Below, piece by piece: positions 1-55,067 of a stretch of 64,000 nucleotides of DNA. This stretch comes from Octopus vulgaris. Lineage: Eukaryota. A program made the translations under genes and the position numbers. A model generated the notes under the pieces. The model did not search any database. It saw only the letters and a list, made by a program, of their open reading frames with translations, and was not told the DNA's origin. The stretch's first letter is position 1, and every line of letters begins with the position of its first letter. The stretch lies in assembly GCA_951406725.2 (NCBI GenBank), contig OX597815.1:152458001-152522000 (forward strand), written 5' to 3'.

Positions 1-1261
1 ATGAAACCTGTTACCATGGTAATGAATCAGATATTATTTATTAACTAATTTACATTTGTATGTCTGAAATTGAACCCTATTTTCTCATAGCATCATCTTG
101 TACTCTCACCCAACATATTTAAACCTTATTACCTTCTGTGTAAGTAATTCTACTGTTTTTCGTGGGCACACAACCACTTCTCTACAAACTGGGATTATTG
201 ACTTCTGTCGTCCAATAATGTCCAGATGTTATTGTCTCCTGAAACAAAATGTGAAAAGTTTCTGTATATTTATGATACTATTTAGATATATTATATAAAT
301 CATTTCTGTGACCATTTGTAATTACTTGGTCTTAATTAACATCAGTGAAAATTTGTAGTGTAACTTTGGTGACATGAATGGAATTAGATATTCCTTTTGA
401 TGTTGTTCTTATATTAACAATAACATTACAAGACAGTTTCTGTCAGTCTGACCCTGCTACACAGGTGTAAGTTCCAAGTCCTCAAGATTAGATACAGGCT
501 GCAAGATGCAAAATAATAAATAGAAAATAATAAATCATAGTGTCATTATTATTCATCATCTACTTTCATGCTTCTAACGATTAGATGGGTCATCAATGTC
601 CTAGTCAGTTCTTATTCAGAGTTAACATCCACTTTGACTGTTTGAGGTACAAATGCATCTCACTTAAATTCTTTGTAGTTTAGATGACAAGATACCCTTC
701 TTAACACCAAACATTATATATAGGGTCTTGGTTATGTTTTATTGTAGCACAGGCACTAATAATATTGTCATCATCATCACCATTTAACATCCTTTGTCCA
801 TGCTGGCCTGGGTTAGACAGTTTCACTAGAGCTGGCAATCTGAGACGCTGCACCAAACTCCAATGTCACCAATTAGATTGAAGGTTCCACTCAAAATTAT
901 GCTGTCTCCTCTCATTCACCAATCACTTTCATGTATGTACTGTGGCCATTTTCTCTTAGTGATAGCACTGGTCAGGTTGTCTTGCATCTCATAATATTAT
1001 ACAATTCTCCTTGCTCTTTGATGTATTTTTACAATCATGAATACATGTTGAGAAAGTGAGCAGTTTACGAGATAACGGAAGAATAATGAGGATTCAGGAA
1101 CTGAAAGTTACCAGAAACTGAGGATAAGAACAATGACTTGAAAGAGATGTGGAGAATGATATGACTGAATGGTTGAAGCTAAGATAAATTTATTTGTGAG
1201 ATGGTTAATGATTTTCTAACATCTTGAGAATTCAATAATCAAAGACAGTGTTTCTTACTAG

Positions 1262-1389
1262 AACATCAATGGCGGCCCTCACTCAGACCTATGCTTGGAA
1301 GCGGAGATTAGTCGACGATGAAGAAGATGATAATTCTGAGAAATATAATAATTTTGAGCTTTTGGATCAAGATACTGAAGTTTATAACG
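1262..1389 (+). pseudogene. Cassette exon A1 (acidic/Tyr), with a 1-nt deletion relative to paralog A2
   Basis: ttactag|AACATCAATGG...TATAACG|gtgagt, 128 nt versus 129 nt for A2. Restoring one base near 1299-1300 gives HQWRPSLRPMLGxRRLVDDEEDDNSEKYNNFELLDQDTEVYN. Either a dead exon or an assembly indel. Confidence 0.6.
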
Positions 1390-1985
1390 GTGAGTATAAA
1401 ACTGAAGTACCAAGCTGATTTCTATAAGTTTTCCTTTGAGCACTAGTATTGGTCAGTTTTTCTTGTATCCAATAAAATTAGACAGGTCTTACTGCTCTTA
1501 TGATGTGTTTTATCATTCAAGGGGACACGTTGAGAAGTGATGACAGAAGAATAATGAGAAAGAAGGGAGTGAACGTTGTGAGAAAATGAGGATAAGAATG
1601 GTGATTTGAAAGAGAGGTGGAGAATGACAAGACTGAGTGACTGTCAGTTGTGTGCCAACAGAAATGATTAATGATGTATTAACATCTTTGGAAACTGACA
1701 ATTAAAGTCAAAAGTACTTATAAGAACATCATTTTCAGCTTTCTAATGTAGGAGATTCAATAACAAATCTAAAGTGAAAATGATTTTAACTAGTAAAAAT
1801 TGTTAAAGATAATTTCATTTGTTTACAAAATCGTCCTCCACAAGGTCTTCTTGATTTATCATCTTATGAAGATGTCAGATATTTACGGTAGTCTGATGTG
1901 TGATATGAGATATCATCACTTACAGGAGTATCTTCCCAGAATGTCTCAGGCTAGAATGAGTATGATAGTCTCTCTCTCTCTCTCT

Positions 1986-2028
<43 letters not shown>

Positions 2029-2452
2029 ACTGAGAATGCATGTATCTGTGCGTGTAAATGTTTGTCTCTCTGCATCACTAAAATTCTAGAACTATCCAAA
2101 TGATTTCATTCAAATTTCACACATGCCTTACTTAAGGTCCATGCAGTATCATGGGCCAAACAAATTTTCAACTTCTTGCTTAATGTGATCCTGGAGCAAT
2201 CTCTTATCTCTAACACTATTTCAGTATTACTTGTCAAAAGTGAAACAATAAAATCACTATTGTAATGTGAGTTAATACTTTCACTGTGATATATCTATGT
2301 ATGTATATGTATATATATGCATATATATGTATACAAATATATATATGTTTACATATATATGCGTACATATCAGATCAAATTGGAGCCTGTTGCAGCCTTT
2401 AGGCTTGCCAGACTTCAGTGAGACCTCAGCATCGAATGCGGATATTAAGCAA

Positions 2453-2469
2453 CAATGATGATGATGATA

Positions 2470-2501
<32 letters not shown>

Positions 2502-2815
2502 GGTGGTGGTCATCGTCGTCATCGTCATCATCGTCGTCGTCGTTGCGGTGGTGATGGTGATGATGGTGATAATGGTGGTGATGATGATGATGATGATGAT
2601 GATGATGTTGATGATGATGATGATGATGATGAAGATGATGATGATGATGATGATCATGATGATGATGATGATGATGATCATGATCATGATGATGATGGTG
2701 GTGTTGGTAGTTGTGGTTGAGGTTGTGGTGGTGGTGCTGGTGCTTGTCCTGGTGGTGGTGCTGGCGGCGGTGGTGGTGGCGGCGCCGCGGCGGTGGTGGT
2801 GGTGATGGCGGTTGT
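2453..2815. repeat. Compound (GAT)n/(GGT)n/(CGT)n microsatellite
   Basis: Seen directly; shorter homologous tracts at about 8488-8650, 10901-10935 and 20175-20220. Confidence 0.95.
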
Positions 2816-3991
2816 GGTGTTAAAGGATGAGGAGGAGAAGGAAATTCTGCAAAAGAGATCTATGCTGGGACATAATCATATTCTCTGTAATGAAAGTCAC
2901 TTATTTTCTAGTCAGATTATATACAATTTGTATAGATATCTTTTATTGCAATGACAGACAGTGTTTTTTTGTATTACATACGAAACCTGTTAACATGGTA
3001 ATGAATCAGATATTATTTATTAACTGACTTACATTTGTATGTCTGAAATTGAACCCTATTTTCTCATAGCATCATCTTGTACTCTCACCCAAAAGATTTA
3101 AACCTTATTACCATCTGTGTAAGTAATTCTACTGTTTTTCGTGGGCACACAACCACTTCTCTACAAACTGGGATTATTGACTTCTATAGTCCAATAAGGT
3201 CCAGATGTTATTGTCTCCTGAAACAGCATGAGAAACATTTCTGTATATTTATGATACTATTTAGATATATTATATAAATCATTTCTGTGACCATTTGTAA
3301 TTAGTTGGTCTTAATTAACATCAGTGAAAATTTATAGTGTAAATTTGGTGACATGAATGGAATTAGATATTCCTTTTGATGTTGTTCTTATATTAACAAT
3401 AACATCGAAGACAGTTTCTGTCTGTCAGACCCTGCTACACAGGTGTAAATTCATGTGTGTACTGGGGTCATTTTCTCATAGCGCTAGCACTGGTCATGTT
3501 GTCTTGCATCTCATAATATTATACAATTCTCGTTGCTCTTTCATGTGTTTTTACAATCATGAAGGCATGTTGAGAATGTGAGAAGTTTATGTGATAACGG
3601 AAGAATGATGAGGATGCAGGGACTGAAATTATAAGAAAATGAGGATAAGAACAATGACTTGAAAGAGAGGTGGAGAATTCCAAGACTAAATGATTGAAGC
3701 TAAGACAAATTTATTTGTGAGATGGTTAATGATTTACAAATATCTTGAGAATCCAATAATCAAAGACAGTGTTACTTACTAGAACATCAATGTTGGTCTT
3801 GGTAAAGTATGAGGCCCAATCACAATATCTCAACAAACATTAGAAAATATAATTGTGAAATCATTTGGTCAGTGTTGCTGTGAATGTCGTTAATTGGTAA
3901 ATGTTTAGATTAATAATTATAGCTTTTTGTGTGAATTTGAATGCTGGTAAATTTTACTATAAATTATATCACTTCATATTATGAATTTCAG

Positions 3992-4057
3992 TCATAGAAT
4001 TGCCGCCTAGAAATGAACGGCCGGGCATATCCCGTCGAAGAACATCACCATCAAATT
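3992..4057 (+). CDS. Cassette exon B1: IELPPRNERPGISRRRTSPSN
   Basis: tttcag|...|gtgagt, 66 nt, phase 1-1, open, more GC-rich than the surrounding intron. Confidence 0.75.
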
Positions 4058-4633
4058 GTGAGTATAAAACTGAAGTACCAAATTCATTTCTATAAGTTTT
4101 CCTTTGAGCACTAGCATTGGTCAGTTTTTCTTGCATCCCATAAAATTTGACAGTTCTTACTGCTCTTATGATGTGTTTTATCATTCAAGGGGACACGTTG
4201 AGAAGTGTTGACAGAAGAATACTGAGGATGCAGGGAGTGAAAGTTGTGAGAAAATGAGGATACAAATGGTGATTTGAAAGAGAGGTGGAGAATGATAAGC
4301 CTGAATGACCATCAGTTGTGAACCAACAGTGATGATTAATGATGTATTAACATCTTGTGAATCTGATAATTAAAGTCAAAATTACTTATAAGAACCTCAT
4401 TTTCAGCTTTCTAATGTAGGAGATTCAATAACAAATCGCAAATAAAAACGTTTTCAACTGGTAAAATTTGTTAGAGACAATTTCATTTGGTTCCAAAATC
4501 GTTATCCAGAAGTTCTTGTTGATTTATCATTTTATGAAGATGTCACATTTTTAAGGTAGTCTGATGTTTGATATGAGATATGATCTCTTGCCGGAGTATC
4601 TTCCCAGAATGGCTCAGATTAGAATATGTGTTA

Positions 4634-5447
4634 TCTATATATATATGAAACTCAACTTGTTTGTCTGTGTGTTTGTCTGTGGGTTTAACTTCCTGGCACA
4701 TCTCCTCCTAGCCAACAGATCGTAGAACCACCAAAAATGGGTCACATAAAGTTTAGGCGAATGAAAATTGAACTGCACTATTTCTGTTCCAAATTCATCT
4801 CGCAATTGCAAAAATCGATAATGTGTTTTTTTAGGCCTTATCCCATGCGTTGAATAGTGAAATTTAATCAGTCAGCTTTTTGACGTGATCTGTGTTCACC
4901 ATGCGTGCAAGCATGCGTAAATTACATGAAAAATAAATAATCAAGATATAAAAACGAATCGTCATAAACATTAGAGAAAAACAGCAAAGAAATGACCTTT
5001 CGGGATATAGCCTGGAGGGTTTTTTCGTATAAATCATTTGGACTATGTGAACACATACCAATTGTTTTCATAACATTTTTAATGCTTTGAATTAAATGTA
5101 AAAATTTTGCATTGAGTCTGCAGTTTGAATCACTTTAACCAAATTTTAGCAGGCAAGATTTTTGATCATCATGATACATCGCCAGCAGCTCCTGGATCTC
5201 TACCCTGAAATTCCCGTTAAGAAATACTGATCTAAAAGAATAATTCAACAATGCAATTATTTGATCAACAAAAATTTATGAAACGCTTCTACGTACTTCC
5301 TATTGAGGGAATAGAACACATAAGGGTATAAAATGCTTGATTTTAAAACCAAAATAATTGAATTTTGATTGAACTTCATCCAAGTTTAGCTTAATTCACG
5401 TGTGCATAGAACACAAGAGCACACGAGCCGGGCAATACTGCTATTTG
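4634..5447 (+). mobile_element. Insertion of about 0.8 kb, possibly a non-autonomous Helitron-like element (second copy at about 7310-8124)
   Basis: Present only in units B1 and B2, at a (TA)n site. Begins TCTATATATAT and ends after a GC-rich cgagccgggc motif with a degenerate CTAG-like end. Class is inferred. Confidence 0.4.
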
Positions 5448-6667
5448 TCTATCTACATATATATACATATGGTTGTGGTGTTAAAGGATGAGGAGAGGGA
5501 GGAGGAGGGGGAGGAAATTCTGCAATATAGAGATCTGTGCTGGGACATAATCATATTCTCTGTAATGAAAGTCACTTATTTTCTAGTCATATCATATACA
5601 ATTTGCATAGATATCTTTTATTGCAATGACAGACAGTGTTTTTTTTGTATTACATATGAAACCTGTTAACATGGTAATGAATCAGATATAATTTATTAAC
5701 TGATTTACATTTGTATGTCTGAAATTGAACCCTATTTTCTCATAGCATCATCTTGTACTCTCACCCAACAGATTTCAACCTTATTACCTTCTGTGTAAGT
5801 AATTCTACTGTCTTTCGTGGGCACACAACCACTTCTCTACAAACTGGGATTATTGACTTCTATAGTCCAATGAGGTCTAGATGTTATTGTCTCCTGAAAC
5901 AACATGTGAAACATTTCTGTATATTTATGATACTATTTAGATATATTATATAAATCATTTCTGTGACCATTTGTAATTAGTTGGTCTCAATTAACATCAG
6001 TTAAAATTTGTAGTGTAACTTTGATGACATGAATGGAATTAGATATTCCTTTTGATGTTGTTCTTATATTAACAATAACATCAAAGACTGTTTCTGTCTG
6101 TCAGACCCTGCTACACAGGTGTAAGTTCATGTGTGTACTGGGGCCATTTTCTCATAGCGCTAGCACAGGTCAAGATGTCTTGCATCTCATAATATTATAC
6201 AATTCTCATTGCTCTCTCATGTGTTTTTACAATCATGATGACATATTGAGAAAGTGAGAATTTCATGTGATAACGGAAGAATGATGAGGATGCAGGGACT
6301 GAAATTATAAGAAAATAAGGATAAGAACAATGACTTGAAAGAGAGGTGGAGAATGCCAAGACTAAATGGTTGAAGCTAAGACAAATTTATTTGTGAGATG
6401 GTTAATGATTTACAAATATCTTGAGAATCCAATAATCAAAGACAGTGTTACTTACTAGAATATCAATGTTGGTCTTGGTTAAGTATGAGGCTCAATCACA
6501 AAATCTCAACAAACATTAGAAAATATAACTGTGAAATCATTTGGTCAGCGTTGCTGTGAAAGTCCTTAATTGGTATATGTTTAGATTAATAATTATAGCA
6601 TTTTGTGTGAATTTGAATGCTGGTAAATTTTGCTATAAATTATAACACTTCATATAATGAATTTCAG

Positions 6668-6733
6668 TCATAGAATTGCCGCCTAGAAATGAACAGCTGG
6701 GCACAACCCGTCAAAGAACATCACCGTCAAATG
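6668..6733 (+). CDS. Cassette exon B2: IELPPRNEQLGTTRQRTSPSN
   Basis: tttcag|...|gtgagt, 66 nt, phase 1-1, open; paralog of B1. Confidence 0.75.
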
Positions 6734-9700
6734 GTGAGTATATAACTGATGTACCAAATTCATTTCTATAAATTTTCCTTTGAGCACTAGCATTGGTCAG
6801 TTTTTCTTGCATCCCATAAAATTTGACAGTTCTTACTGCTCTTATGATGTGTTTTATCATTCAAGGGGACACGTTGAGAAGTGTTGACAGAAGAATACTG
6901 AGGATGCAGGGAGTGAAAGTTGTGAGAAAATGAGGATACAAATGGTGATTTGAAGGAGAGGTGGAGAATGATAAGACTGAATGACCATCAGTTGTCAACC
7001 AACAGTGATGATTAATGATGTATTAACATCTTGTGAATCTGATAATTAAAGTCAAAATTTCTTATAAGAACCACATTTTCAGCTTTCTAATGTAGGAGAT
7101 TCAATAACAAATCGCAAATAAAAACGTTTTCAACTGGTAAAATTTGTTAGAGACAATTTTATTTGGTTCCAAAATCGTTATCCAGAAGTTCTTGTTGATT
7201 TATCATCTTATGAAGATGTCACATTTTTAAGGTAGTCTGATGTTTGATATGAGATATGATCTCTTGCCGGAGTATCTTCCCAGAATGTCTCAGATTAGAA
7301 TATGTATTATCTATATATATACGAAACTCAACTTGTTTGTCTGTGTGTGTGTCTTTGGGTTTAACTTCCTGGCACATCTCCTCCTAGCCAACAGATCGTA
7401 GAACCACCAAAAATGGGTCACTTAAAGTTTAGGCGAATGAAAATTGAACTGCACTATATCTGTTCCAAATTCATCTCGCAATTGCAAAAATCGATAATGT
7501 GTTTGTTTAGGCCTTATCCCATGCGTTGAATAGTGAACTTTAATCAGTCAGCTTTTTGACGTGATCTGTGTTCACCACGCGTGCAAGCATGCGTAAATTG
7601 CATGAAAAATCAAAAATCAAGATATAAAAATGAATCGCCATAAACATTAGAGGAATTCAGCAAAGAAATGGCTTTTCGGGATATAGCCTGGAAGGTATTT
7701 TCGTATAAATCATTTGGACTATGTGAACACATACCAATTGTTTACATAACATTTTTAATGCTTCGAATTAAATGTAACCATTTTGCATTGAGTCTGCAGT
7801 TTGAATCCCTTTAACCAAATTTTAGCAGGCTGGATTTTTGATCATCACGATATACCGCCAGCAGCTCCTGGATCTCTACCTTGAAATCCCCGTTGAGAAA
7901 TACTGATATAAAAGAATAATTCAACAATGCAATTATTTGATCAACAAAAATTTATGAAACGCATCTACGTACTTCCTATTGAGGAAATAGAACACATAAG
8001 GGAATAAAATGCTTCATTTTAAAACCAAAATAATTGAATTTTGATTGAACTTCATCTAAGTTTAGCTTAATTCACGCGTGCATAGAACACAAGAGCACAC
8101 GAGCCGGGCAATACTGTTATTAGTCTATATACATATATATACATATATGTATGTGTATAACTGAGAATGCATGTATGTATGCATGTAAATGCCTGTCAGT
8201 CTGTCTGTATGTGTGCGACACTAAAACTCCAGAACTACCCGACTGATTTCATTCAAATTTCATACATGTCTTACATAAGGTCCATACATTTTGTAATGTG
8301 AGTTAATAATTTCACTGTGATATATCTATGAATGTATATGTATGTAAATATATATGCACATATACGTGTGCATGTATATGTATTTGCATATATATGCATA
8401 CATATAAGATCAGATTGGAACCTGGTGCAGCCTTTAGGCTTCCCGGCCCTCAGTCACACCTCAGCGTGGAAAGCAGATATTAAACAACGATGATGATGAT
8501 GGTGGTGGTGGTTGTGGTGGTGGTGATGGAGGTGGTGCGGAGCCTGGTGGTGGTGCGGGTCCTGGTGGTGGTGCTGGCAGTGGTGGTGGTGCGGCGGTTG
8601 GGGCGGGTGCGGGTGCGGCGGTGGTGGTGGTGATGGCGGTTGTGGTGTGAAAGGATGAGGAGGAGAGGGAAATTCTGCAATAGAGATCTGTGCTGGGACA
8701 TAATCATATTCTCTGTAATGAAAGTCACTTCTTTTCTAGTCAGATTATATACAATTTGTACAGATATCTTTTATTGCAATGACTGACAGTGTTTTTTTGT
8801 ATTACGTATGAAACCTGTTAACATGGTAATGAATCAGATATTATTTATTAACTGATTTACATTTGTATGTCTGAAATTGAACCCTATTTTCTCATAGCAT
8901 CATCTTGTACTCTCACCCAACAGATTTAAACCTTATTACCTTCTGTGTAAGTAATTCTACTGTTTTTCGTGGGCACACAACCACTTCTCTACAAACTGGG
9001 ATTATTGACTTCTATTGTCCAATGAGGTCTAGATGTTATTGTCTCCTGAAACAACATGTGAAACATTTCTGTATATTTATGATACTATTTAGATATATTA
9101 TATAAATCATTTCTGTGACCATTTGTAATTAGTTGGTCTTAATTAACATCAGTGAAAATTTGTAGTGTAACTTTGGTGACATGAATGGAATTAGATATTC
9201 CTTTTGATGTTGTTCTTATATTAACAATAACATCGAAGACAGTTTCTGTCTGTCAGACCCTGCTACACAGGTGTAAGTTCATGTGTGTACTGGGGCCATT
9301 TTCTCATAGCGCCAGCACTGGTCAGGTTGTCTTGCATCTCATAATATTATACAATTCTCATTGCTCTTTCATGTGTTTTTACAATCATGATGACATATTG
9401 AGAAAGTGAGAATTTTATGTGATAACGGAAGAATGATGAGGATGCAGGGACTGAAATTATAAGAAAATGAGGATAAGAACCATGAGAGGTGGAGAATGCC
9501 AAGCCTAAATGGTTGAAGCTAAGACAAATTTATTTGTGAGATGGTTAATGATTTACAAATATCTTGAGAATCCAATAATCAAAGACAGTGTTACTTACTA
9601 GAATATCAATGTTGGTCTTGGTTAAGTATGAGGCTCAATCACAAAATCTCAACAAACATTAAAAAATATAACTGTGAAATCATTTGGTCAGTGTTGCTGT

Positions 9701-9810
9701 GAAAGTCCTTAACTGGTAAATGTTTAGATTAATAATTATAGCTTTTTGTGTGAATGTGAATGCTGGTAAATTTTAGTATAAATTATAACAATTCATTTTA
9801 TGAATTTCAG

Positions 9811-9876
9811 ACACAGAATTGCAGTCTAGAAATGTACAGCCAGGTACAACACATCAAGGTACATCACAGCCACATG
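9811..9876 (+). CDS. Cassette exon B3: DTELQSRNVQPGTTHQGTSQPH
   Basis: tttcag|...|gtgagt, 66 nt, phase 1-1, open; diverged paralog of B1/B2. Confidence 0.75.
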
Positions 9877-12331
9877 GTGAGTATAAAACTGAAGTACCAA
9901 ATTCATTTCTATAAGTTTTTCTTTGAGCACTAGCATTGGTCAGTTTTTCTTGCATCCCATAGAATTTGACAGTTCTTACTGCTCTTATGATGTGTTTTAT
10001 CATTCAAGGGGACACGTTGAGAAGTGTTGACAGAAGAATACTGAGGATGCAGGGAGTGAAAGTTGTGAGAAAATGAGGATACAAATGGTGATTTGAAAGA
10101 TTTGGAGAATGATAAGACTGAATGACCATCAGTTGTGAACCAACAGTGATGATTAATGATGTATTAACATCTTGTGAATCTGATAATTAAAGTCAAAATT
10201 ACTTATAAGAACCTCATTTTTAGCTTTCTAATGTAGGAGATTCAATAACAAATCGCAAATGAAAATGTTTTCAACTGGTAAAATTTGTTAGAGACAATTT
10301 CATTTGGTTCCAAAATCGTTATCCAGAAGTTCTTGTTGATTTATCATCTCATGAAGATGTCACATTTTTAAGGTAGTCTGATGTTTTATATGAGATATCA
10401 TCTCTTGCCAGAGTAATTTCCCAGAATATCTCAGCTGAGAATATGTATGATAGTCTATATATATAAATACAGATATAATTATGAATGCATATATCTATAC
10501 GCGTAAATGTTTATCTGTCTGTCTCTATGTATGTGTGCATCACTAAAACTCGAGAACTACCCAAATTATCTCATTCAAAATTCACACATGTCTTACTTTC
10601 GGTCCATGCAGTGTCATGGGCGAAATAAATTTTCAACTTCTTGCCTAATGTGATCGTGGAGCAATCTCTTATCTCTTACACTATTTCAGTATTACTTGTC
10701 AAAAGTGAAACAATAAAAACGCTATTGTAATGTGAGTTAATACTTTCACTGTGATATATCTATGTATGTATATGTATATATATGCATATATATGTATTCA
10801 AATATATATATGTTTACATATGTATGCATACATATCAGATCAAATTGGAGCCTGGTGTAGCCTTAGTCACACCTCAGCATGGAAAGCGAATATTAAACAA
10901 CGATGATGATGATGATGATAATGATGATGATGATGGAACTTCTACAATATAGATCTGTGTGGAGACATAATCATATTCACTGTATTGAAAGTCACTTATA
11001 TTTTAGTCAGATTATATACAATTTATATAGATATCTAGTATTGCAATGTCAGACGTTGTTTTTTTGTATTACATATAAAACCTGTTAACATGTTAATGAA
11101 TCAGATATTATTCATCAACTGCTTTACATTTGTATGTCTGAAATTTAACCTGATTTTGTCATAGCATCATCTTTTACGCTCACCCAACAGATCTATACCT
11201 TATTACTGTCTGTGTAAGTAGTTCTAAAGTTTTTCTTGGGCACGCAACCACTTCTCTACAAACTGGTATTATTGACTTTTTTAGTCCAATAAGGTCTAGA
11301 TATTATTGTGTCCTAAAACAAAATGTGAAACTTTTCTGTATATTTATGATACTATTTAGATATATTATATAAAGCATTACTGTGATGTTTTGTAATTATT
11401 TGGTCTTAATTAACTTCAGTGACAAATGTAGTATAACGTTGGTAACAAGAATGGGATTAGATATTCCTTTTGATGTTGTTCTTATATTAACAATAACATC
11501 ACAAGACAGTTTCTGTCAGTCTGACCCTGCTACACAGGTGTAAGTTCCAAGTCCTCAAGATTAGATACAGGCTGCAAGATGCAAAATAATAAATAGAAAA
11601 TAATAAATCATAGTGTCATTATTATTCATCATCTACTTTCATGCTGCTATCGATTAGATGGGTCATCAATGTCCAAGTCAGTTCTTATTCAGAGTTAACA
11701 TCCACTTTGACTGTTTGAGGTACAAATGCATCTCACTTAAATTCTTTGTAGTTTAGATGACAAGATACCCTTCTTAACACCAAACATTTTATATAGGGTC
11801 TTGGTTATGTTTTATTGTAGCACAGGCACTAATAATATTGTCATCATCATCACCATTTAACGTCCATTGTCGATGCTGGCCTGGGTTAGACAGTTTCACC
11901 AGAGCTGGCAATCTGAGACACTGCACCAAACTCCAATGTCACCAATTAGATTGAAGGTTCCACTCAAAATTATGCTGTCTCCTCTCATTCACCAATCACT
12001 TTCATGTATGTACTGTGGCCATTTTCTCTTAGTGATAGCACTGGTCAGGTTGTCTTGCATCTCATAATATTATACAATTCTCCTTGCTCTTTGATGTGAT
12101 TTTACAATCATGAAGACATGTTGAGAAAGTGAGCAGTTTACAAGATAACGGAAGAATAATGAGGATTCAGGAACTGAAAGTTACCAGAAACTGAGAATAA
12201 GAACAATGACTTGAAAGAGATGTGGAGAATGATATGACTGAATGGTTGAAGCTAAGATAAATTTATTTGTGAGATGGTTAATGATTTTCTATCTTGAGAA
12301 TTCAATAATCAAAGACAGTGTTACTTACTAG

Positions 12332-12460
12332 GACATCAATGGCAGCCCTCACTCAGACCTATGCATGGAGAGCGGGTATCAGTCGACGATGAAGATGATG
12401 ATAATTGTGAGGAATATGAGGTTCTTGAGCATTCTGATCAATACTCTGAAGTTTATGTTG
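12332..12460 (+). CDS. Cassette exon A2: GHQWQPSLRPMHGERVSVDDEDDDNCEEYEVLEHSDQYSEVYV
   Basis: ttactag|...|gtgagt, 129 nt, phase 1-1, open; acidic with YEVL and YSEV motifs. Confidence 0.75.
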
Positions 12461-14347: not shown

Positions 14348-14437
14348 AACATCAATACCGGCCCTCAGTCAAATCTGATGATGATAATGAAGAAGATGAT
14401 GATGGTGGAGATGATGAAATTGATGATGTTGATAATG
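14348..14437 (+). CDS. Cassette exon C1: EHQYRPSVKSDDDNEEDDDGGDDEIDDVDN
   Basis: ttactag|...|gtgagt, 90 nt, phase 1-1, open; 5' end homologous to the A exons. Confidence 0.7.
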
Positions 14438-16324: not shown

Positions 16325-16414
16325 AACATCAATACCGGCCCTCAGTCAAATCTGATGATGATAATGAAGAAGATGATGATGGTGGAGATGATGAAATTGA
16401 TGATGTTGATAATG
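16325..16414 (+). CDS. Cassette exon C2 (identical to C1)
   Basis: Same sequence and splice sites as C1, 1977 bp downstream. Confidence 0.7.
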
Positions 16415-18302: not shown

Positions 18303-18392
18303 AACATCAATACCGGCCCTCAGTCAAATCTGATGATGATAATGAAGAAGATGATGATGGTGGAGATGATGAAATTGATGATGTTGATAATG
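18303..18392 (+). CDS. Cassette exon C3 (identical to C1)
   Basis: Same sequence and splice sites as C1, 1978 bp downstream of C2. Confidence 0.7.
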
Positions 18393-20052: not shown

Positions 20053-21273
20053 TACACATATATATATGTATGCATATATATGTATGCATGTATATCAGAT
20101 CAGATTGGAGCCTTCAGGCTTGCATGACCTCACATTCAGACCTCAGCATGGAAAGCAGATATTAAATGAAAACGATGACAAACATGATGATGGTGATGAT
20201 GATGATGATGATGATGATGGAATTTCTACTATATAGATCTGTGCTGAGACATAATCATATTCCCTGTAATGAAAGTCACTTAGTTTTTAGTCAGATTATA
20301 TACAATTTATATAGATATCTTGTATTGCATGTCAGACAGTGTTTTTTTGTATTACATATACAACCTGTTAACATGGTAATGAATCAGATATTATTCATTA
20401 ACTGATTTACATTTGTATGTCTGAAATTTAACCTGATTTTATCGTAGCATCATCTTTTACGCTCACCCAACAGATTTATACCTTATTACCATCTGTGTAA
20501 GTTATTCTACAGTTTTTCTTGGGCACAGAACCACTTCTCTAAAAACTGGCATTATTGACTTCTATAGTCCAATAAGGTCCAGATGTTATTGTCTCCTAAA
20601 ACAATATGTGAAACATTTCTGTATATTTATGATACTATTTAGGTATATTTTATAAAGCATTACTGTGACCTTTTGTAATTAGTTGGTCTTAATTAACATC
20701 AGTGATAAATGTAGTATAACGTTGGTAACATGAATGGGATTAGATATTCTTTTTCATGTTGTTCTTATATTAACAATAACATCACCAGACAGTTTCTGTC
20801 AATCAGACATTGCTACACAAGTGTAAGTTCCGAGTCCTCAAATTTTCTGGTTTCTTGGTTACTACCCTATCAATGTCAACCACATTGATAAAGAGATATC
20901 AAAGGGGAAGGTAATTTTGTTTGATGTATAGATGAGATTTGAATAGAGGTAACCTATATTCTTGAGAATCCGTTCTGTTGTACCATTCCAGGTACTTTTG
21001 TTGCAATATATGGATGATATGTTATATGTAGCTTATGATGTTGAGTGCAAATGCATAGTATTTTAGGGCATATTACCACTGTCCATTTCACTTGTGTAGA
21101 ACTAATCATTGCTCACCTTAAAAGAAACTGTTTTTCTAAGGAGGATGAATGACAAGCAAATGTTTTCAAATATTTCAAGAATCAGATGACATTCTGGTGA
21201 ACTGTAATGTGGGTAGTTAAAATTCAAGATTACCAGTGGCAACCTTTAACAGAGAGAGAGAGAGAGAGAGAGT

Positions 21274-21803: not shown

Positions 21804-21875
21804 AGGATGTAAGACTCACCAAGGAGAATCTCCAACAGTTGGTTGAAAGTTTAGCACAAAAGTGGAATCATGTTG
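21804..21875 (+). CDS. Exon D1, Death-domain N-terminal helices: EDVRLTKENLQQLVESLAQKWNHV
   Basis: atttcag|...|gtaagt, 72 nt, phase 1-1. The L..L...L...W..(G) pattern joins in frame to the terminal exon. Confidence 0.8.
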
Positions 21876-22902: not shown

Positions 22903-22974
22903 AGGATGTAAGACTCACCAATGAGGATCTCCTACAGTTGGTTGAAAGTTTAGCACAAAAGTGGAATCATGTTG
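22903..22974 (+). CDS. Exon D2, duplicate Death-domain N-terminal exon: EDVRLTNEDLLQLVESLAQKWNHV
   Basis: atttcag|...|gtaagt, 72 nt; 3 substitutions versus D1, all non-synonymous. Confidence 0.8.
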
Positions 22975-24051: not shown

Positions 24052-24102
24052 AGAATCTAAACCTGAGCAAGCAGGATCTAAAGTTGGTTGAAAGTTTAGC
24101 AC
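24052..24102 (+). pseudogene. Degenerate exon D3: ENLNLSKQDLKLVESLA
   Basis: Acceptor intact, but a deletion removes the KWNHV codons and the gtaagt donor; only a weak gtgtat donor remains. Confidence 0.6.
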
Positions 24103-25298
24103 GTGTATAAAATAAGAATACTTAATTGGTTTCTATAAGAGTTACGTACAGTTGAACTTTTGTTTTCTAGAACGTCTGTGAACTGGTTCCATTCCTAATT
24201 TCCAATTGAAAGATTAACTGTAATGTAATTCTATAAAAGGTACTGATATTACTAAAATTTTATAAAATATCTACAGAGGTTAGCGTGGTTGGTAATACTG
24301 ATAAATGAAACAACACAATAGAGTTGATATTGTCTTTTGGAATTGGGAACTGAAATACACTATTGTGTTGGTGTAAGCAGGTGGGTTAATGGTAATGTTT
24401 TTGTTTGTTTTACCTTTTTTTCTGAGTTTGTCGATAAGTTAGTGTTATTTAACCAGATGTCTATTGTCATCTGGCTGACATATGATAAAAAGTCTTCTAA
24501 GTGTGAAAACCCTGACTTGTTTGTGGGAGCATGTTATCAAATGTATCGTTTATAGCACGTTAGGGTGTATTTTGAGTGAAATTTAGCTGCTATATCTCAT
24601 AGCTAAAGTGATCACGTGAAGGCTGCCTCACTGCCTCATCCTGCATTAGCCTATTGTATGGGCTGCTGGTTGGCAGTGATGGAACAACATATCTTCTACT
24701 GTCCAGTCTGTTGTTTTGTTGGTAACTAAAGTGGAGTTGGTCATGGTGGACATAGCCAGAAGATCATAGATATCTGTCTTTAGTATTTTCTTCCGTTGGT
24801 GTATATCCCAGGAATAAGTGGTGGTCAAAATGGACATAGACAATAAAGCTATTGGTTTGGTGTGTAAATGTTATTTTCTGTTGTAGGAACATTCTGGGAA
24901 ATTATAGATGTGTCTGGGTGTGAAAGTGGTAGGTGTAATGTGTGTTGGATCTTCACACAAACAACAAACTACATCCACTTTATATTCAACTGCTCTTTTA
25001 TTTTCAGTACTGTTGTGCTTGTTGCAGTTGTATAGCCACAGCACCCAACCTCGATCAAGTAATATATTGTACACATGTAGCTAACCAAATGAGAACAGAT
25101 GTAAATCACTGATCCATAGAAGCAGACACAGCATGTTTTCATCTTGTTGAAGTCCACACTTCCCTGACATCCTGTGATTAATTGTATGTGGCGAAATGTT
25201 GCTGTATCTGCCCTGTCCAGTCTGGTTCTCTGTATTTATTGTTATTCTTTACTCTCAGATCAACTTGTAGTTTCTAGTGTTGATTATATTCATGGGTG

Positions 25299-28019: not shown

Positions 28020-28225
28020 GTATCTCTCTGGGCATTGCTACTGATGCCCTAACAAATATCGACGGGGATAATGGTAATAACGATATAATAAAGAGCTTTC
28101 AGATGCTAGAAACATGGCTTACGCGCTGCAATAGTAACACAAATGCATTTGAAATACTCAGAGGAGCTCTTGAAAATGCTAACTGTTTGCCTGCACTTAA
28201 CTATCTACCATCAGGCAAAAAGTAA
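28020..28225 (+). CDS. Terminal coding exon, remainder of the Death domain
   Basis: Polypyrimidine tract and ttgcag acceptor. GISLGIATDALTNIDGDNGNNDIIKSFQMLETWLTRCNSNTNAFEILRGALENANCLPALNYLPSGKK* matches the Death-fold pattern LG......I..dn.......ML..W..........L..AL (ORF 27980..28225). Confidence 0.8.
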
Positions 28226-28593: not shown

Positions 28594-31500
28594 CATCATC
28601 ATCATCATCATCGTTTAACGTCCGTTTTCCATGCTAGCATGGGTTGGACAGTTCGACCGGGGTCTGGGAAGCCAGGTGGCTGTGCCAGGCTCCAGTCTGG
28701 TCTGGCAATGTTTCTACAGCTGGATGCCCTTCCTAAAACCAACCACTCCGTGAGTGTAGTGGGTGCTTTTTACATGCCACTGGCACAGGGGTCAGAGGAG
28801 GCTAGCAAGCAGCCACGATCGGTAGGTGCTTTTTTTGTGTCACCGACATGGATGCTCGTCAGGTGCTGCTGGCATCAGCCATGTTCAGATGGTTCTTTTT
28901 ATGTGTCAGCAGCACAGGAATCTTAACTACAATTTCCATTTGATTTTTATTTTGATGTTGGTGTTGACGTACTTGACACAATAAGTCTCCTCAAGAGCAG
29001 GCCATCCTGCGTGCCATAAACTCACTTCAGTCGTCGGACCTTCACAGTTACAGCATATCTCAGAGGTCTCAGTCTTTCGTCATTTCCTCTGTGAAGCCCA
29101 ACATGCCACCGGCATGGGTATCACAACTACAATATCCATTTGATTTTTATTTTGATATTGATGTACTTGACTCAATAGGTCCCTTCAAGCACAGCAGGTC
29201 ACCCTACGAACCAAGGTTAGCACAGCAGGCCATCCTGCGAGCCATGAACTCACTTCATTTGTCGGGTCTTCGAAGTCACAGCATATCTCCAGAGGTTTCG
29301 GTCTTTTGTCATTGCCTCTGTGAGGCCCAATGTATGAAGGTCATGCTTGAACACCTCATCCCATGTCTTCCTGGGTCTACTTCTACACCGGATTCCATCA
29401 ACAGTTTGGGAGTGGCACTTCTTCACACAGCTCTCCTCATCTATCTGTAGTACATGACCATACCAACGCAAATGTCTCTCCTGCACACCACATCTGATGC
29501 TTCTTATGTCCAACATTTCTCTTAGGGCGCTTACACTCTGTCATGCATGGACACTGACATTACACATCCAGCAAATCATGCTAGCTTCATTTCTTTCAAG
29601 CCTATGTTTCACTGCCTTGAAGCATGGCAATTTGCACACATGTGTTGTACAATCTACCTTTCACTCTGAGCAAGAGACCCTTTGTCATCAGTCGGGGTAG
29701 AAGCTTTCTAAACTTTGCCCAGGCTATTCTTATTCTAGTGGTAACACTCTCTGAGCATCAACCCCCACTATCAACTTGGTCACCTAGGTAGTGGAAACTA
29801 TCAACTATTTCTAGTTTCTTCCCCTGGAGTGTAGTAGAATCTGTTTTCTGAGTATCTGTGGCGTCTATTGTCCCTGTGAATCTGCTGCACATGAAAGCTA
29901 TCTTCTCGGTTATTTTTCCTTTGATGTTGCTGCACCTCTTATGCATCCATAGCTTACACTTGGTACATTTTATGGAGTTTCTACCTAAACTTTTCTACAG
30001 ATCAAGCAGGGCCACCTACATGAGGGGTGGGGGTGATGAGTTCGCCTTTCTACTTAGTATAACTTTGGTCTTTGCTACATTGACTCTAAGGCCTTTTGAT
30101 TCTAAACCTAGCTTCCACACCCAAAATTTATTTTCTAGTTCCCATAGCGATTCTGCTATGAGGGCCAGGTCATCAGCATAGAGGAGCTCCCAGGGGCAAC
30201 CCATCTTCAATTCTTCTGTTATTGCCTGGAGGACTATGATGAATAAAAGGGGACTGAGGGCTGAACCTTGGTGGACCCCTACTTCTACCTTGAATTCTTC
30301 ACTATACTCGTTGCCAATCCTAACCTTACTAACGGCCTCTCTGTATAGGGCCTGTACAGCCCTTATTAACCATTCGTCTATCTCCAGTTTCCAAGTTTGC
30401 TCACCAGATAAAGGATAGGGGGACTCTGTCAAAGGCTTTCTCCAAGTCCACAAAAGCTAAGTAGAGGGGTTTATCTTTAGCTAGGTATTTCTCCTGCAGT
30501 TGTCGAACCAGGAATATGGCATCAGTGGTGCTTCTACCCGGAACAAAACCAAATTACATCTCATCTAATCAGACTCCCTCCCTAATGAGATGGACTATGA
30601 CCCTCTCTGTGACCTTCATCACCTGATCCAACAGTTTAATACCCCTGTAGTTATTTCTATCTAGAGCATCACCTTGTAGCTTGACGTCGTAGATCTTGGA
30701 GATTTGGATCTCCCTCGAGCCGAGCCACCCTCGCCCCCTCCACGAGTTCAAGAGTGTCACCAGAGATCCAGTTCCTATGATGGCAGCGAGTAGACCCGAG
30801 ATGTTTTCGGGCCACCTCAACTGTTGCTTCCTTCAGCACTTGCCACTCCTGCTCCGGCTGTTGCTCCACCACATTACCAACCAACTGGAATCGAGTTTGA
30901 GTCGCAAGATGCTGATTCTCTTCTTGTGGTTAGGAGGAGGTTTCGCCTGCAGCCACAAATGAAAGGTTGCCCAAACAAGAGTATGGTCTGACCAATGCTA
31001 GCTTCCCTTTATCAGCCCCGCGATATGCACGAGAGTCTACCACTGATCTAGCCCAGTGAGACCTGACCAGTATGTAGTCAATCTGATTGGCTGTTCTCCT
31101 GTCATTGGACCGGGCTGATCGAAATGCACACTGGCGTGCATTTGCGGAGCAGACAGAGAGAGCAGCAGTATGCGGCAACTCACGGAAGCTTTACCAACTG
31201 GTGAAGCAGGGCAGCCGAAGCAATCTGGGTGTCAGCGAGATGATCCATGATCGGAACGGTGTGGTCATTACCAACCTCAGTGACCGGGTGGGCCAATGGT
31301 GGGACTACTTCTCCGAGCTCCTCAATCACCTGCCTCCATCTACGACAACCAATGCGCAGCCGCCTGGAGAAGAGTACAGATGCAACACTGCCCCTCCAAT
31401 GGTCGAGGAGGTGCGTGGTATCCTGAAAAATCTCCAGAACAACAAGGCCCCGTGTGAGGACGGTGTCCCAGCTGAGATCTACAAGACCGAGCCTGATGTC

Positions 31501-33307
31501 TTCGCAGCCTGGCTCCATCATGTTTTCTCTGCTGTGTGGGTGACGGAGCATTTTCCTGATGACTGGAGTGAGATAACTCTTTTACCTTTCTTCAAAAAAG
31601 GTGATAGAAAGCTGTGTTCCAACTATAGAGGCATCATCTTGATCAATGTGGTTGCAAAAACCTTTGCAATCCTTCTTCTGAAGAGGTTCCAGGCCATCCG
31701 TGATGTTCGTACTCGTCCTTCTCAGGACAGCTTCCATCCTGGGAGAGGGTGCGTTGATCAAATCTTCAATCTCCGGCAAGTCCTGGAACAGTGGTGGGCG
31801 CACCAACAACATATCGTTCTCTGCTTCATCGATTTTGTGGCTGCCTTTGACTTGGTGGGTCGGGAGGCCCTCTGGCATATTATGCAGGCGGACGGTATCC
31901 CTGTAAAGCTGCTAAACCTCATACTGGGTTACTATCGTTCAGCGAGGGCTCGTGTGAGGGTCTATGGCAGGGAGACGGAGTCATTTGATGTCACTACAGG
32001 TGTTTGACAGGGTTGTACGCTCTCACCAATTATGCCATCGATTACATTCTCAACACTGTGCTTCGGGATTACCCAGGCATAGAGGCTGGGAGAGGAGTCG
32101 TGGTGACGGACCTGGCCTATGCAGATGACATCACGCTCTTGGGCTCTAACCGGGTAGATGTCCAAGATGCTCTCAAAAGGGTGCATGCGGCAGCGGCAGC
32201 TGTCAGTCTTCAGATCAATACTGGCAAAACAAAAGGGATGACGTCTCTGGTCACAGCAGATGAATGGCAGCCAATCGTTCTTGAGGGCATGGAGCTGAAG
32301 GATGTGGAGTCCTTCGTCTACCTGGGTTCCAACAAGCCAGGGCACAGCCGAGGTCAAGCATCGCATAGGTGTTGCCAGGTCAGCATTCGTGCATCTCCAG
32401 CAGTGCCTGTGGGACAGAAGAGAGATCTCCTTTGTGACCAAAGGGCAAATTTACCAGGCCATCGTTCATACTATCCTCCTCTATGGTTGCAAAACATGGC
32501 CTATTAGGGTAGCTGATCAGCGAAGGCTAGAGGTGTTCGACAATGACTGTCTCTGCCGCATTCTTCACTGCTGACACATTGATCGGGTTCCTACAGTCTT
32601 TGTCATCGCCTGAATCTCCGGCCCCTTCCCTTTGATGCTTTTACAATGGCACTTAAGGTGGTTCGGTCATGCAGCCCACCATCCAGAGGGGGAGCTGATT
32701 CATGATGTCCTCTTCCCAGCTGGCACAAATGCAGAGGCAGACAGCTGAAGACCTGGGCCACGATGATAAAGGAGGACCTCTCCGAACTATCAGGTCCACA
32801 GGTGGTCGGTCTGCGCAGAGGGAACCGCGAATAGCTCGCTATCTTCAGTGACCCCGCACGGGACCGTCAAGCATGAGCCACCATGGTTCGTGATACAGTT
32901 AGGACTAGAGGAGAAGCCGGCTCAACCCGCCCTGGGTGAATGCCATCACAAGTACAAGTAAGTACCCTTGGAGCAGTTGACTATGGTGCTGCTACGCCAG
33001 TTATTGGGTATGACTCCATTATGAACTACCTGGTTTACAATGCGGGTGGCTAGGCCATAGCCCACACCACCAGATGCTTTAAGCATCTCAGCAGTGATTC
33101 TAGATGGGCCGGGGGCTTTTCCTGGCTTCATGCCCTTAATTGCTTTATCTACTAGGGAGCTGTCTATTGGGATATCTGGTCCTTCTACTGGGTCAACATT
33201 TGGCAGGTTCTCCTCCTCCCATTCATTCTCCACATTCAGCAGTCTTTCATAATGGCTTCTCCAAGCCTCTTTCTTTTCAGAAACATTAAAAGCAAGTGCA
33301 TCATCAT
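28594..33307 (-). mobile_element. Degraded, 5'-truncated RTE-clade LINE interrupted by a nested element
   Basis: RT motifs KAPGPS..TAEML, NYRGIKLL, GVHQGSALSPLLF, LLYADDL and LRWYGHV across frameshifted ORFs; (GAT)n tail at 28594. Confidence 0.9.
30676..32963 (+). mobile_element. Nested RTE-clade LINE with an inverted 5' segment
   Basis: Plus-strand RT (31087-32574: KAPCEDG, NYRGI, FIDFVAAFD, LAYADDI) and CAAGTA tail. Segment 30676-31110 encodes the endonuclease end and linker (NQIDYILV) on the minus strand. It splits the host reading NCSKG/KGDALDRNNYRG. Confidence 0.9.
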
Positions 33308-35818: not shown

Positions 35819-37527
35819 GTGTTACAACACACTGTGGATGATCACACTCGACCTCTGGCTTTCTTTTCCCGCCAACTGCAACCAGCTGAACCACGATACA
35901 GCACTTTTGATCGTGAGCTCCTAACGATCTATCTATCGGTTCGTCATTTCCAGCATCAACTTGAAGGGCGAGATTTTGTGATCTATACGGATCACAAGCC
36001 CTTACGTTTGCCCTGTGTTCAAAAACGGACAAACTCTCGCCTCGTGCTTTCCGGCACCTGGATTTTATCTCTCAAGTCACTAGTAACATTCGACACATAC
36101 CTGGAAAAGAGAACATTCCTGCTGACGCTCTCTTTTGCCTTCCAGTCTGCGCCCTTTCGTCTCCTGCTGCTATCGACTTAACTGACATCTTGCAGGAGCA
36201 GCCACCTTTGGCGTCGTTAGACTTAACTTCTCCCAAGTTCTCCTGTTGCCAGTTTTCCTACCTTCCGCTTCCGTCAGCCGAAGGCACCATTCTTTGTGAT
36301 ACTTCCACTGGTTCTCCCAGGCCACTCGTGCCTGAGAATCATCAACGCTCAGTATTTGAAGCACTGCACTCCTTATCACATCCTGGCATCGCTGCCACCC
36401 TTAAGCTGATCACTGCTCCGTTTTTCTGGCCGAATATGCATTGCACTATTACTTCTTGGACACGCACCTGCTCCAAATGTCAATGGTCCAAGATTCAACG
36501 GCACGTTCGTGCCCCGCTTGGACATTTTCCTCCTACAGAGGCCCGTTTTCGCCATGTCCACATTGATCTTGTTGGACCATGGCCTGTGAGTCACGGGTTT
36601 TCTTATCTGTTAACTTGTGTCGATCGTTTCTCCCGTTGGCCAGAAGCCATTCCGATAGCAGACATTTCTGCTGAGACTGTTGCGCGAGCCTTCGTTTCGA
36701 ACTGGATTTTCCGTTTCGGAGTTCCGTCCAGAGTGACTACTGATCATGGACGTCAGTTTGAAGCTTCGCTATTTCGCGAATTGTCGCGCATTTTAGGTGT
36801 GCATCATATTCACACTACCAGTTATCATCCAGCGTCTAATGGATTAGTTGAACGGTTCCATAGACAGCTCAAGGCCGCTCTTCATGCCTCTTCAGATCCA
36901 CAGTCTTGGATTGAATTTCTGCCAATTGTACTTCTCGGTTGTCACACTGCTGTCAAGGCAGACCTGGGGTTTTTTTCTGCAGAGCTACTGTATGGTACCA
37001 CACTGGCATTGCCTGGTACGATGTTGGTGCCAGACACTTCCCAGCCCCATGATCCAGCGACCTATGTCGCCAAACTGCGTTCCTATTTTTCAAATCTTCC
37101 GCCCATGGTTCCGAGGAAACAATCTCCACCATCCCATCTCCCACCGGATATGGATACTTGGTCGCATGTTTTTGTTCGGGACGACTCTGTCAAGGGATTT
37201 CTTGTTTCTCCTTATAAAGGACCTTTCCGTGTGCTTTCTTGCACACCTAAGGTTTTCACCATTGAAATGAATGGTCATACGGAGACCGTTTCCGTGGACC
37301 GACTGAAAAAAGCATATTTTGAGGCGTCTTCATCTCTTGATTATACCGTTGCCACACCTACCTATGCACCTTTAACAACACCTTCACCTTCACAGACACC
37401 TTTGCCTTCACCGGCTCCCACAACACCACCTTCGCCGTCAACGGATGCCCCAAGCACACCGTATATTACAAGATCGGGCAGAACAGTACATTGGCCCAAG
37501 AAACTCTCAAAGACAATTTATATTTGA
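35819..37527 (+). pseudogene. pol remnant: RNase H C-terminus (frameshifted) and open integrase region
   Basis: PLAFFSRQL..AE.RYSTFDRELL..YTDHKPL; HHCC zinc finger (HSLSHPG..CSKC); DDE core ([19 protein letters not shown]) in ORF 36190..37527. Confidence 0.9.
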
Positions 37528-54090: not shown

Positions 54091-54477
54091 TGCTCCATCT
54101 GTTTCCAAGGTAGCATTCCAATCCCCCACTCGAGGAGATCACTATAAAGTTTCTTGGAAGAGTACTCCTGGCATCTTCCAACCGCATTGGGGTAATTGGA
54201 TTTTAGTGTGATGCAGGGTTGGTGTGATGTGCAATATTTTAATGTGTTCTGGTGGTGTTGTGTATAGGTGGTTGCTTGTTTTTATGTCTCCATGTGTCAG
54301 GTTTTTTTTTTGTGGTTTTGGCCAACTTATGTGGAGCCCATTTGAATAGCGTTTGTCTAGCAGATAGATAGATTAATATGAATATATATATATATATATG
54401 TATATGTATAAAGATATATATATATATATATATATACGTATATACGTGTGTTTGTATGTATATACATATATGTATGT

Positions 54478-55067
54478 ATATGGGACAGGAAGTAAATATG
54501 TGCCGAGATATCAAAAAGGAGATCTCACGGAGAGTAAGGGCCGGATGGAAGGCATTTAATGGCATAAGGGATATCCTCAAGGGAAGGTTGGACAGGACCA
54601 CCCGTGCCAACCTCATTAACAGTGCAGTTCTGCCTGCAATGTTATATGGTAGTGAAACATGGGCTACCACAAAGAGAGAAGAGCAAAGACTGGTAACGGC
54701 TCAAAGTGCCATGGAAAGGTCAATGCTTGGTATCTCGTTGAGAGAGCACATCAGTAGCGAGATCATCAGAAAGAAGTCCAGTGTGAGAGACGTCATCGCA
54801 GAGTATACACGCAGCAAGTATAGATGGGCTGGACACGTCGCCCGGCTCACCAATAATCGGTGGACCCACGCAGTTGTCGAGTGGTACCCGCGCGAGCGGA
54901 AAAGACCACCCAGAAGACCTCCACGACGGTGGAGTTATGATTTCAGGAGGATGATTTGGATCACGTGGATGATAAAGGCGCGATCCAGAGAGGAGTGGAC
55001 AGCGTGCTGTGACCAGCAGTGTCAAATGGACGCCTGACGGACTGGTCAGTCAAGGTGATCAAGGTGA
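54478..55067 (+). mobile_element. 5'-truncated RTE LINE
   Basis: EISRRVRAGW..F, VLPAMLYGSETW, KYRWAGHVAR and RRPPRRW motifs; TCAAGGTGA tandem tail. Confidence 0.85.

Follow-up and report, generated by a model that had tools for sequence, protein, structure and literature searches.

Probable positive selection on the cytoplasmic tail and death-domain exons of a putative adhesion receptor family in Octopus vulgaris

Fast exon evolution is familiar in secreted toxins and in the outward-facing parts of immune receptors, and the accelerated exons of conotoxin genes provide a parallel. Exon divergence above that of the introns is described for snake venom PLA2 and three-finger toxin genes (PMC2711939, PMC2474615). 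Here we describe such a contrast in a 64,000-nucleotide (nt) stretch of Octopus vulgaris DNA (contig OX597815.1, positions 152,458,001 to 152,522,000 of the forward strand), referred to as the window. Its first 24 kb consist of tandem units of 1-3 kb with one short exon per unit. The exons analyzed (cassettes A, B and E, the D exons and a last exon) likely encode the cytoplasmic tail and the death domain of an octopus adhesion G protein-coupled receptor (GPCR) of the LRR-GAIN-7TM type (TM, transmembrane). The best explanation for their divergence is episodic positive selection on the tail and death-domain exons together with gene conversion, to which we assign a probability of about 0.7. The acceleration lies on the signalling side, namely, in the TM5-7 exon, the tail and the death-domain surface, and GAIN is almost fixed; if confirmed, this would be a skin receptor family that diversifies its output, not its input.

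The closest described relative is the O. bimaculoides orthologue Ocbimv22014869m (A0A0L8FLR8), a member of the octopus-specific adhesion-GPCR expansion 'group 3' of Ritschard et al. 2019 (PMC6408891), which has LRR, GPS, 7TM and Death domains and belongs to the same family. In the parts of that paper available to us, branch-level positive selection is reported for group 3 with no selected sites, the death domain is mentioned once, and there is no account of a cassette tail, of its splicing or of the exon-intron contrast. The orthologue carries a short QSTSQ-repeat tail and is the sole group member with a death domain, whereas five tail-bearing copies are present here. According to its supplement entries (a tau of 0.96, with values of 0.71 in skin, 0.17 in sucker and 0 in the posterior salivary gland; PMC6408891), the orthologue is skin-specific, a result that is taken from O. 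bimaculoides and not from this species. Venom genes share with the octopus locus an excess of exon over intron divergence after duplication, surface change on a retained fold and an exchange of exon segments (compare cassette B3 below), and exons that diverge more than introns with a nonsynonymous to synonymous ratio (dN/dS) above 1 are found here as well. However, venom genes encode secreted toxins, whereas the octopus family evolves fast intracellularly and its extracellular GAIN region slowly. A venom gene is ruled out, since this is a membrane receptor with an orthologue that is highest in skin and has a venom-gland value of 0, and the venom link made in the original prediction is not supported beyond the divergence pattern.

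Two further systems are related in part. Death receptors and adaptors (RIPK1, PIDD, Fas, TNFR1) and the octopus ankyrin-RING-death-domain (Ank-RING-DD) proteins have the death domain in common with this family, but the domain described here is part of a seven-transmembrane receptor, starts with a duplicated exon and changes rapidly. Dscam-type arrays (PMC3364881) likewise comprise tandemly duplicated exons in alternative use, but the octopus cassettes are not mutually exclusive, with several per isoform, and the variable part is cytoplasmic. A GPCR with a death domain is rare, with one published mention found. In a search of mostly open-access literature, neither the cassette tail nor its selection was found in print, PMC6408891 was the sole directly relevant paper, and the five gene identifiers were not mentioned in any paper.

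The locus extends over about 0.8 Mb (C2:151.88-152.67 Mb) and contains five tail-bearing copies, G1 to G5, of which G4 is the window gene, and one extra receptor fragment. Of the 53 cassettes detected there, 49 have a length divisible by 3 nt and 48 keep an open frame. Rates were estimated with a codon model on trees derived from the flanking introns, with separate synonymous and nonsynonymous multipliers relative to the intron rate. Selection is expected to leave the synonymous multiplier near 1 and to raise the nonsynonymous one, whereas homogenization of introns or hypermutation of exons should raise both. The pooled likelihood set comprised the B, D, A and last exons; 35 of the 39 B copies entered the codon alignment (three frameshifted copies and one with a replaced upstream flank were dropped), and this test did not include the D-like and the 66-nt A-type exons of G2, any E exon, or the last exons of G2 and G5, which are truncated. 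The pooled synonymous rate was 1.10 times that of the intron (0.70-1.58, a coarse grid interval), and the nonsynonymous rate was 3.71 times (3.55-4.06, on the same coarse grid), corresponding to an omega of 3.39 (p 1.1e-7). By class, omega was 2.5 for B (p 8e-4), 15 for D (p 2e-4), 3.1 for A (p 0.08) and 5.0 for the last exon (p 0.06). Exon-only trees in IQ-TREE gave omega values of 3.15 and 3.05 (twice the log-likelihood difference, 12.5 and 8.4).

A tree-free count, which favours silent edges, led to the same result: 13/122 single-step codon changes are silent as compared to 29.2 expected (P 1.6e-4), and none of 400 neutral simulations gave a silent count that low. The deficit is seen without the gap-adjacent copies G1 and G3 (9/92 against 21.6 expected), without A1 and the stop-bearing D exon (13/104 against 25.1), in the tail taken by itself (11/84 against 19.7) and likewise in the death domain (2/38 against 9.5). 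Control fits to other exons of the same copies used filtered flanks, with TM2 and TM3, which carry indels, and the LRR exons left out. The GAIN and GPS exons had a nonsynonymous rate of 0.30 times and a synonymous rate of 0.75 times that of the intron, and the nonsynonymous multiplier was 0.75 in the part of the ectodomain outside the LRRs and rose to 2.39 in the TM5-7 exon. The nonsynonymous excess thus climbs toward the cytoplasmic end and is not a general property of the exons; the slow GAIN control speaks against an exon effect throughout the genome. Comparisons between species point in the same direction. Set against O. sinensis proteins from an independent assembly, the window gene differs at 2/273 residues over GAIN/GPS and at 21/205 residues over six tail and death-domain exons paired by position, and O. 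bimaculoides and O. sinensis share 234/272 residues in GAIN and 44/90 in the death domain. Changes in the death domain affect 5/41 core and 18/49 other positions (p 0.007) and thus steer clear of the conserved core. In last-exon copies located 540 kb apart, 14/201 bases differ with a single silent codon, and the intron differs at 103/3470.

The original prediction had been made from exon pairs within the window, and its counts were reproduced by alignment. The acidic cassettes A1 (1262-1389, + strand as for all window exons; 128 nt) and A2 (12332-12460; 129 nt, with the Tyr motifs YEVL and YSEV) show 23/128 mismatches and one 1-nt gap, so that 16 codons differ, none of them purely synonymously. 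The intron stretch chosen in the prediction has 9/325 mismatches, and the nearest flanks have 6/297 upstream and 13/300 downstream. These two units are mosaic, with a difference of 2-4% only at about 400-1600 and of 9-13% at window positions 1-400 and about 1700-1950. Cassettes B1 (3992-4057, IELPPRNERPGISRRRTSPSN), B2 (6668-6733) and B3 (9811-9876) are all of 66 nt and phase 1/1. B1 and B2 differ at 7/66 exon positions, with 14/300 in the upstream and 6/300 in the downstream flank, whereas B2 and B3 differ at 15/66, with 11/300 and 8/298 in the flanks. The exons D1 (21804-21875, 72 nt, LTKENLQQLVESLAQKW) and D2 (22903-22974, 72 nt) differ at 3/72 positions, with 7/300 upstream and 0/130 downstream. 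As neutral change is expected to be nonsynonymous in about 76% of cases in these codons, the predicted near-absence of silent changes is in part a neutral expectation. The claim that the exons evolve faster through amino-acid changes is supported across the family, and the single pairs on which it was built are nonsignificant.

The B2/B3 pair requires a different explanation. An informative-site scan and distance matrices revealed a conversion tract over B3 with a minimal extent of 9756-9873 (strand not assigned) and a maximal one of about 9742-9921. From about 55 nt upstream of the exon to its end, the informative sites match a cassette that lies outside the window, some 3 kb further upstream, and the wider flanks of B3 group with B1 and B2. 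Since the tract matches that upstream cassette, the B2/B3 difference is mostly an exon swap and not the accelerated point mutation that had been proposed. Private changes of A1 number 12 within the exon and 10 over roughly 700 nt of flanking sequence, and two of those in the exon match E-type exons, suggesting that its private changes may in part be imported.

A number of observations weigh against selection as the cause. No named pair is non-neutral by itself (P 0.24-0.75; A1/A2 0.24, B1/B2 0.49, D1/D2 0.43), the exon set within the window gives 4/29 silent changes against 7.1 expected (P=0.13), and the window gene alone gives P 0.04 (5/44 against 10.2); significance was reached only after adding paralogous cassettes and death-domain exons. 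The pooled ectodomain and GAIN exons have an omega of about 1 (both rates 0.60 times that of the intron), which indicates weak constraint in the family. Codon changes at more than one base are mildly overrepresented (10.9% against 6.7%; 8/400 simulations), recombination breaks the single-tree model, and the trees are few. Contigs of two other runs over A2 show 3/191 and 5/227 differences, like their neighbours (2/192 and 5/228). Several copies are damaged: the death domains of G2 and G5 are truncated, the D exon of G3 contains a stop, the window gene carries one extra base in its TM2 exon, A1 is frameshifted, its 1-nt deletion relative to A2 leading to an in-frame TAG, and TM3 is frameshifted in two other copies. 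No window-gene transcript linking TM7 to the tail was seen, and the O. sinensis orthologue model begins within the tail. Among the joints listed for one run presumed to be RNA, none fell on an exon boundary, a result that speaks neither for nor against. Finally, among 12 disjoint closest pairs, chosen on their flanks, four have exons that are more alike than the flanks, three of them being identical. The Asp-rich cassettes E1 (14348-14437, 90 nt), E2 (16325-16414) and E3 (18303-18392) are also identical to each other, as are 12 of the 13 36-nt exons of G2, although the flanks of the latter differ by 2-3%; the acceleration is episodic.

The alternative named in the original prediction is that gene conversion homogenizes the introns while the exons retain an older, neutral divergence. 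The mosaic units, the tract on B3, the weak correlation between flank and exon distances (Spearman 0.20-0.25) and the equality of the synonymous and nonsynonymous proportions in B2/B3 (pS 0.218, pN 0.216) fit this idea. However, it predicts equal silent and replacement divergence, whereas the silent rate equals that of the intron (upper limit 1.58) and the replacement rate exceeds it more than threefold; there is no rise of intron diversity beside the exons, and the last exon, which lies outside any array, follows the same trend. Intron-biased conversion acting alone is thus disfavoured and appears quite improbable. The tail might instead be disordered and unconstrained, with selection on splicing restraining introns and silent sites, so that dN would reflect the true neutral rate. 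In favour of this, the KA/KS test (nonsynonymous to synonymous rates) is reported to be distorted by short alternatively spliced exons (PMC1526763, PMC2784930), and the pooled ectodomain omega near 1 speaks for weak constraint. However, selection at the RNA level also hits replacement sites and, by this reasoning, cannot raise dN above dS; moreover, constraint of about 70% would be needed over entire introns of 1.6-3.5 kb, the divergence of which is flat, and the same excess is present in the constitutive last exon and in the TM5-7 exon. We regard this explanation as unlikely.

Mutation restricted to exons, such as CpG decay in methylated exons, editing-linked A-to-G change or multi-base events, could inflate exon divergence, and the CpG observed/expected ratio of 0.63 in exons as compared to 0.18, the share of A/G among the last-exon differences (9/14) and the mild multi-base excess are in line with it. 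CpG transitions, however, account for just 5/68 polarised exon changes, so that CpG decay is rejected as an explanation. An A>G bias due to RNA editing, prompted by the last exon, was ruled out family-wide (10/68 in exons against 31/256 in introns, p 0.54). With the single-step test still significant after exclusion of multi-base codons and with GAIN exons slower than introns, exon-specific mutation is very unlikely. A similarly slight chance is given to an assembly artefact, in which errors in the consensus, or haplotypes left uncollapsed, would give rise to spurious paralogues or differences. Assembly gaps adjoin G1, G3 and the window gene, the 5' blocks of G2, G3 and G4 match each other at 98-99%, and the TM2 insertion looks as if two alleles had been merged, although it may also be real. 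Errors, on the other hand, would hit introns and silent sites equally, separate O. sinensis models for G2 and G4 show the same contrast, and the result stands without G1 and G3. Positive selection is the best explanation across the family, based on the codon model and the silent counts.

Building on the anatomy of units and exons, the rates, the slow GAIN control, the exon-centred conversion tract and the broken copies, all of which are observed, the following course of events is likely. Tandem duplication of entire exon-plus-intron units came first. Episodic positive selection then likely drove the amino-acid-changing sites while silent sites and introns kept one background rate. Gene conversion now and then carries divergent exons between units, and spent copies decay in a process of birth and death. 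Tyr motifs and Ser/Thr-rich and acidic stretches are gained and lost among the cassettes, and their translations contain YEVL, YSEV, YEEP and RRTS, which we take to be docking and phosphorylation motifs. The tail may thus be a docking and phosphorylation scaffold, and selection, with the binding partners of the tail inside the cell as its presumed target, would diversify these partners or evade inhibitors. The receptors likely have a signalling role in skin at the animal surface, for which immune or damage sensing is our favoured guess. More tentatively, and with some doubt, this could be a death-receptor-like GPCR family of octopus skin that combines a near-fixed ectodomain with a hypervariable inside, where splicing and exon swapping would put together varied phospho-tails and death-domain surfaces. 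This diversity would stem from an arms race against pathogen inhibitors inside the cell, or from signalling partners such as the expanded Ank-RING-DD proteins being partitioned. If confirmed, the pattern would offer as testable targets defined cassette isoforms, the two exons that can start the death domain, and candidate partners.

The assignment of these exons to an adhesion GPCR is supported by several lines of evidence. The last exon (28020-28225), coding for the rest of the death domain and the stop, matches O. sinensis LOC115232413 at 93%, and the nine isoforms of this locus that were retrieved combine the A, B, E and D cassettes in varying ways, with several B cassettes and both D exons co-occurring in annotated isoforms; A2 has 5/42 residues changed with respect to them. 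The prediction that the exons are functional agrees with their presence in these nine annotated isoforms, except for the frameshifted A1, in which an internal AG could conceivably provide a 78-nt in-frame form. The window holds the 3' part of the gene (1-28225, + strand), and its GAIN, GPS and TM exons are located upstream on the same strand (C2:152378213-152433639). Over GAIN/GPS, including CSCNHLTSF, the upstream exons are identical to the O. sinensis protein P0057 at 271/273 residues. All TM exons were located. The phase-1 donor at the end of the TM5-7 exon is compatible with the cassettes, every one of which is of phase 1/1. The alternative inclusion of cassettes and the joining of 7TM, tail and death domain are known by annotation in other octopuses: the 7TM-tail junction is annotated in P0057 and P0012, and in O. 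sinensis LOC115224769 the 7TM region is joined directly to the cassettes of paralogue G2. The long N-terminal adhesion region, with signal peptide and LRRs, is present in G2 and in P0046/P0057, and the 5' end of the window gene is cut by an assembly gap.

The best non-self match among 1.84 billion representatives was O. bimaculoides XP_014788728 (E 1e-15), with LRR, GPS, 7tm_2 and Death domains. The annotated octopus receptor P0012 has LRR, GPS (Pfam E 1e-13), 7tm_2 (E 1e-23) and Death domains, the last scoring above the Pfam cut-off (27.6 against 22.6); protein P0002 stays under the Death cut-off (E 0.04), protein P0001 alone has no Pfam match, and a homologue search with protein P0009 returned O. 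sinensis isoforms only. A profile of the octopus death domain matches solved death domains, among them RIPK1 at E 4e-15 and PIDD at 8e-9. A single-sequence structure model contains helices in this region, but at a mean confidence score (pLDDT) of only 43 it is uninformative. D1 and D2 each code for the beginning of the domain, which is thus duplicated; a third, degenerate copy, D3 (24052-24103, + strand), has lost its donor site. The nearest death domains are those of octopus Ank-RING-DD proteins, apparently an expanded family and possible signalling partners. The death-domain exon has 26 more matches of 36-46% identity on contigs C29, C31, C26, C10, C8, C1 and C30.

Other features of the locus were noted. 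In copy G2 (C2:152045000-152084000, minus strand), a 2.74-kb unit that contains a 36-nt exon (PHMRDGNEAPV) is repeated 13 times in tandem, as compared to 11 times in the O. sinensis model. In G5 (C2:152535214-152666252), a signal-peptide exon is followed directly by the post-LRR exon, tblastn detected no LRR exon, the TM region is divergent and the death domain is truncated. Most cassette units contain a conserved, donor-like intronic element ending in CTACACAG-GTGTAAGT, used by no annotated isoform, at window positions 430-475, 3410-3450, 6085-6125, 9240-9280, 11505-11545 and 20790-20830. A degenerate TGGA satellite of about 12-14 kb occupies the intron preceding the TM5-7 exon (C2:152418000-152433000), and a similar block is present in G2 and G3. 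Pairs of AG-GT motifs located 36 nt apart (AAACAG-GTAAGT ... TTACAG-GTGAGT), reminiscent of recursive splicing, were seen at C2:152434620-152434670 and at similar sites. Downstream in the window, 31087-32507, 35965-37527 and 54372-55037 correspond to LINE-like reverse transcriptase remnants and a Gypsy-like integrase frame, judged by eye from their translations, and are ordinary repeats.

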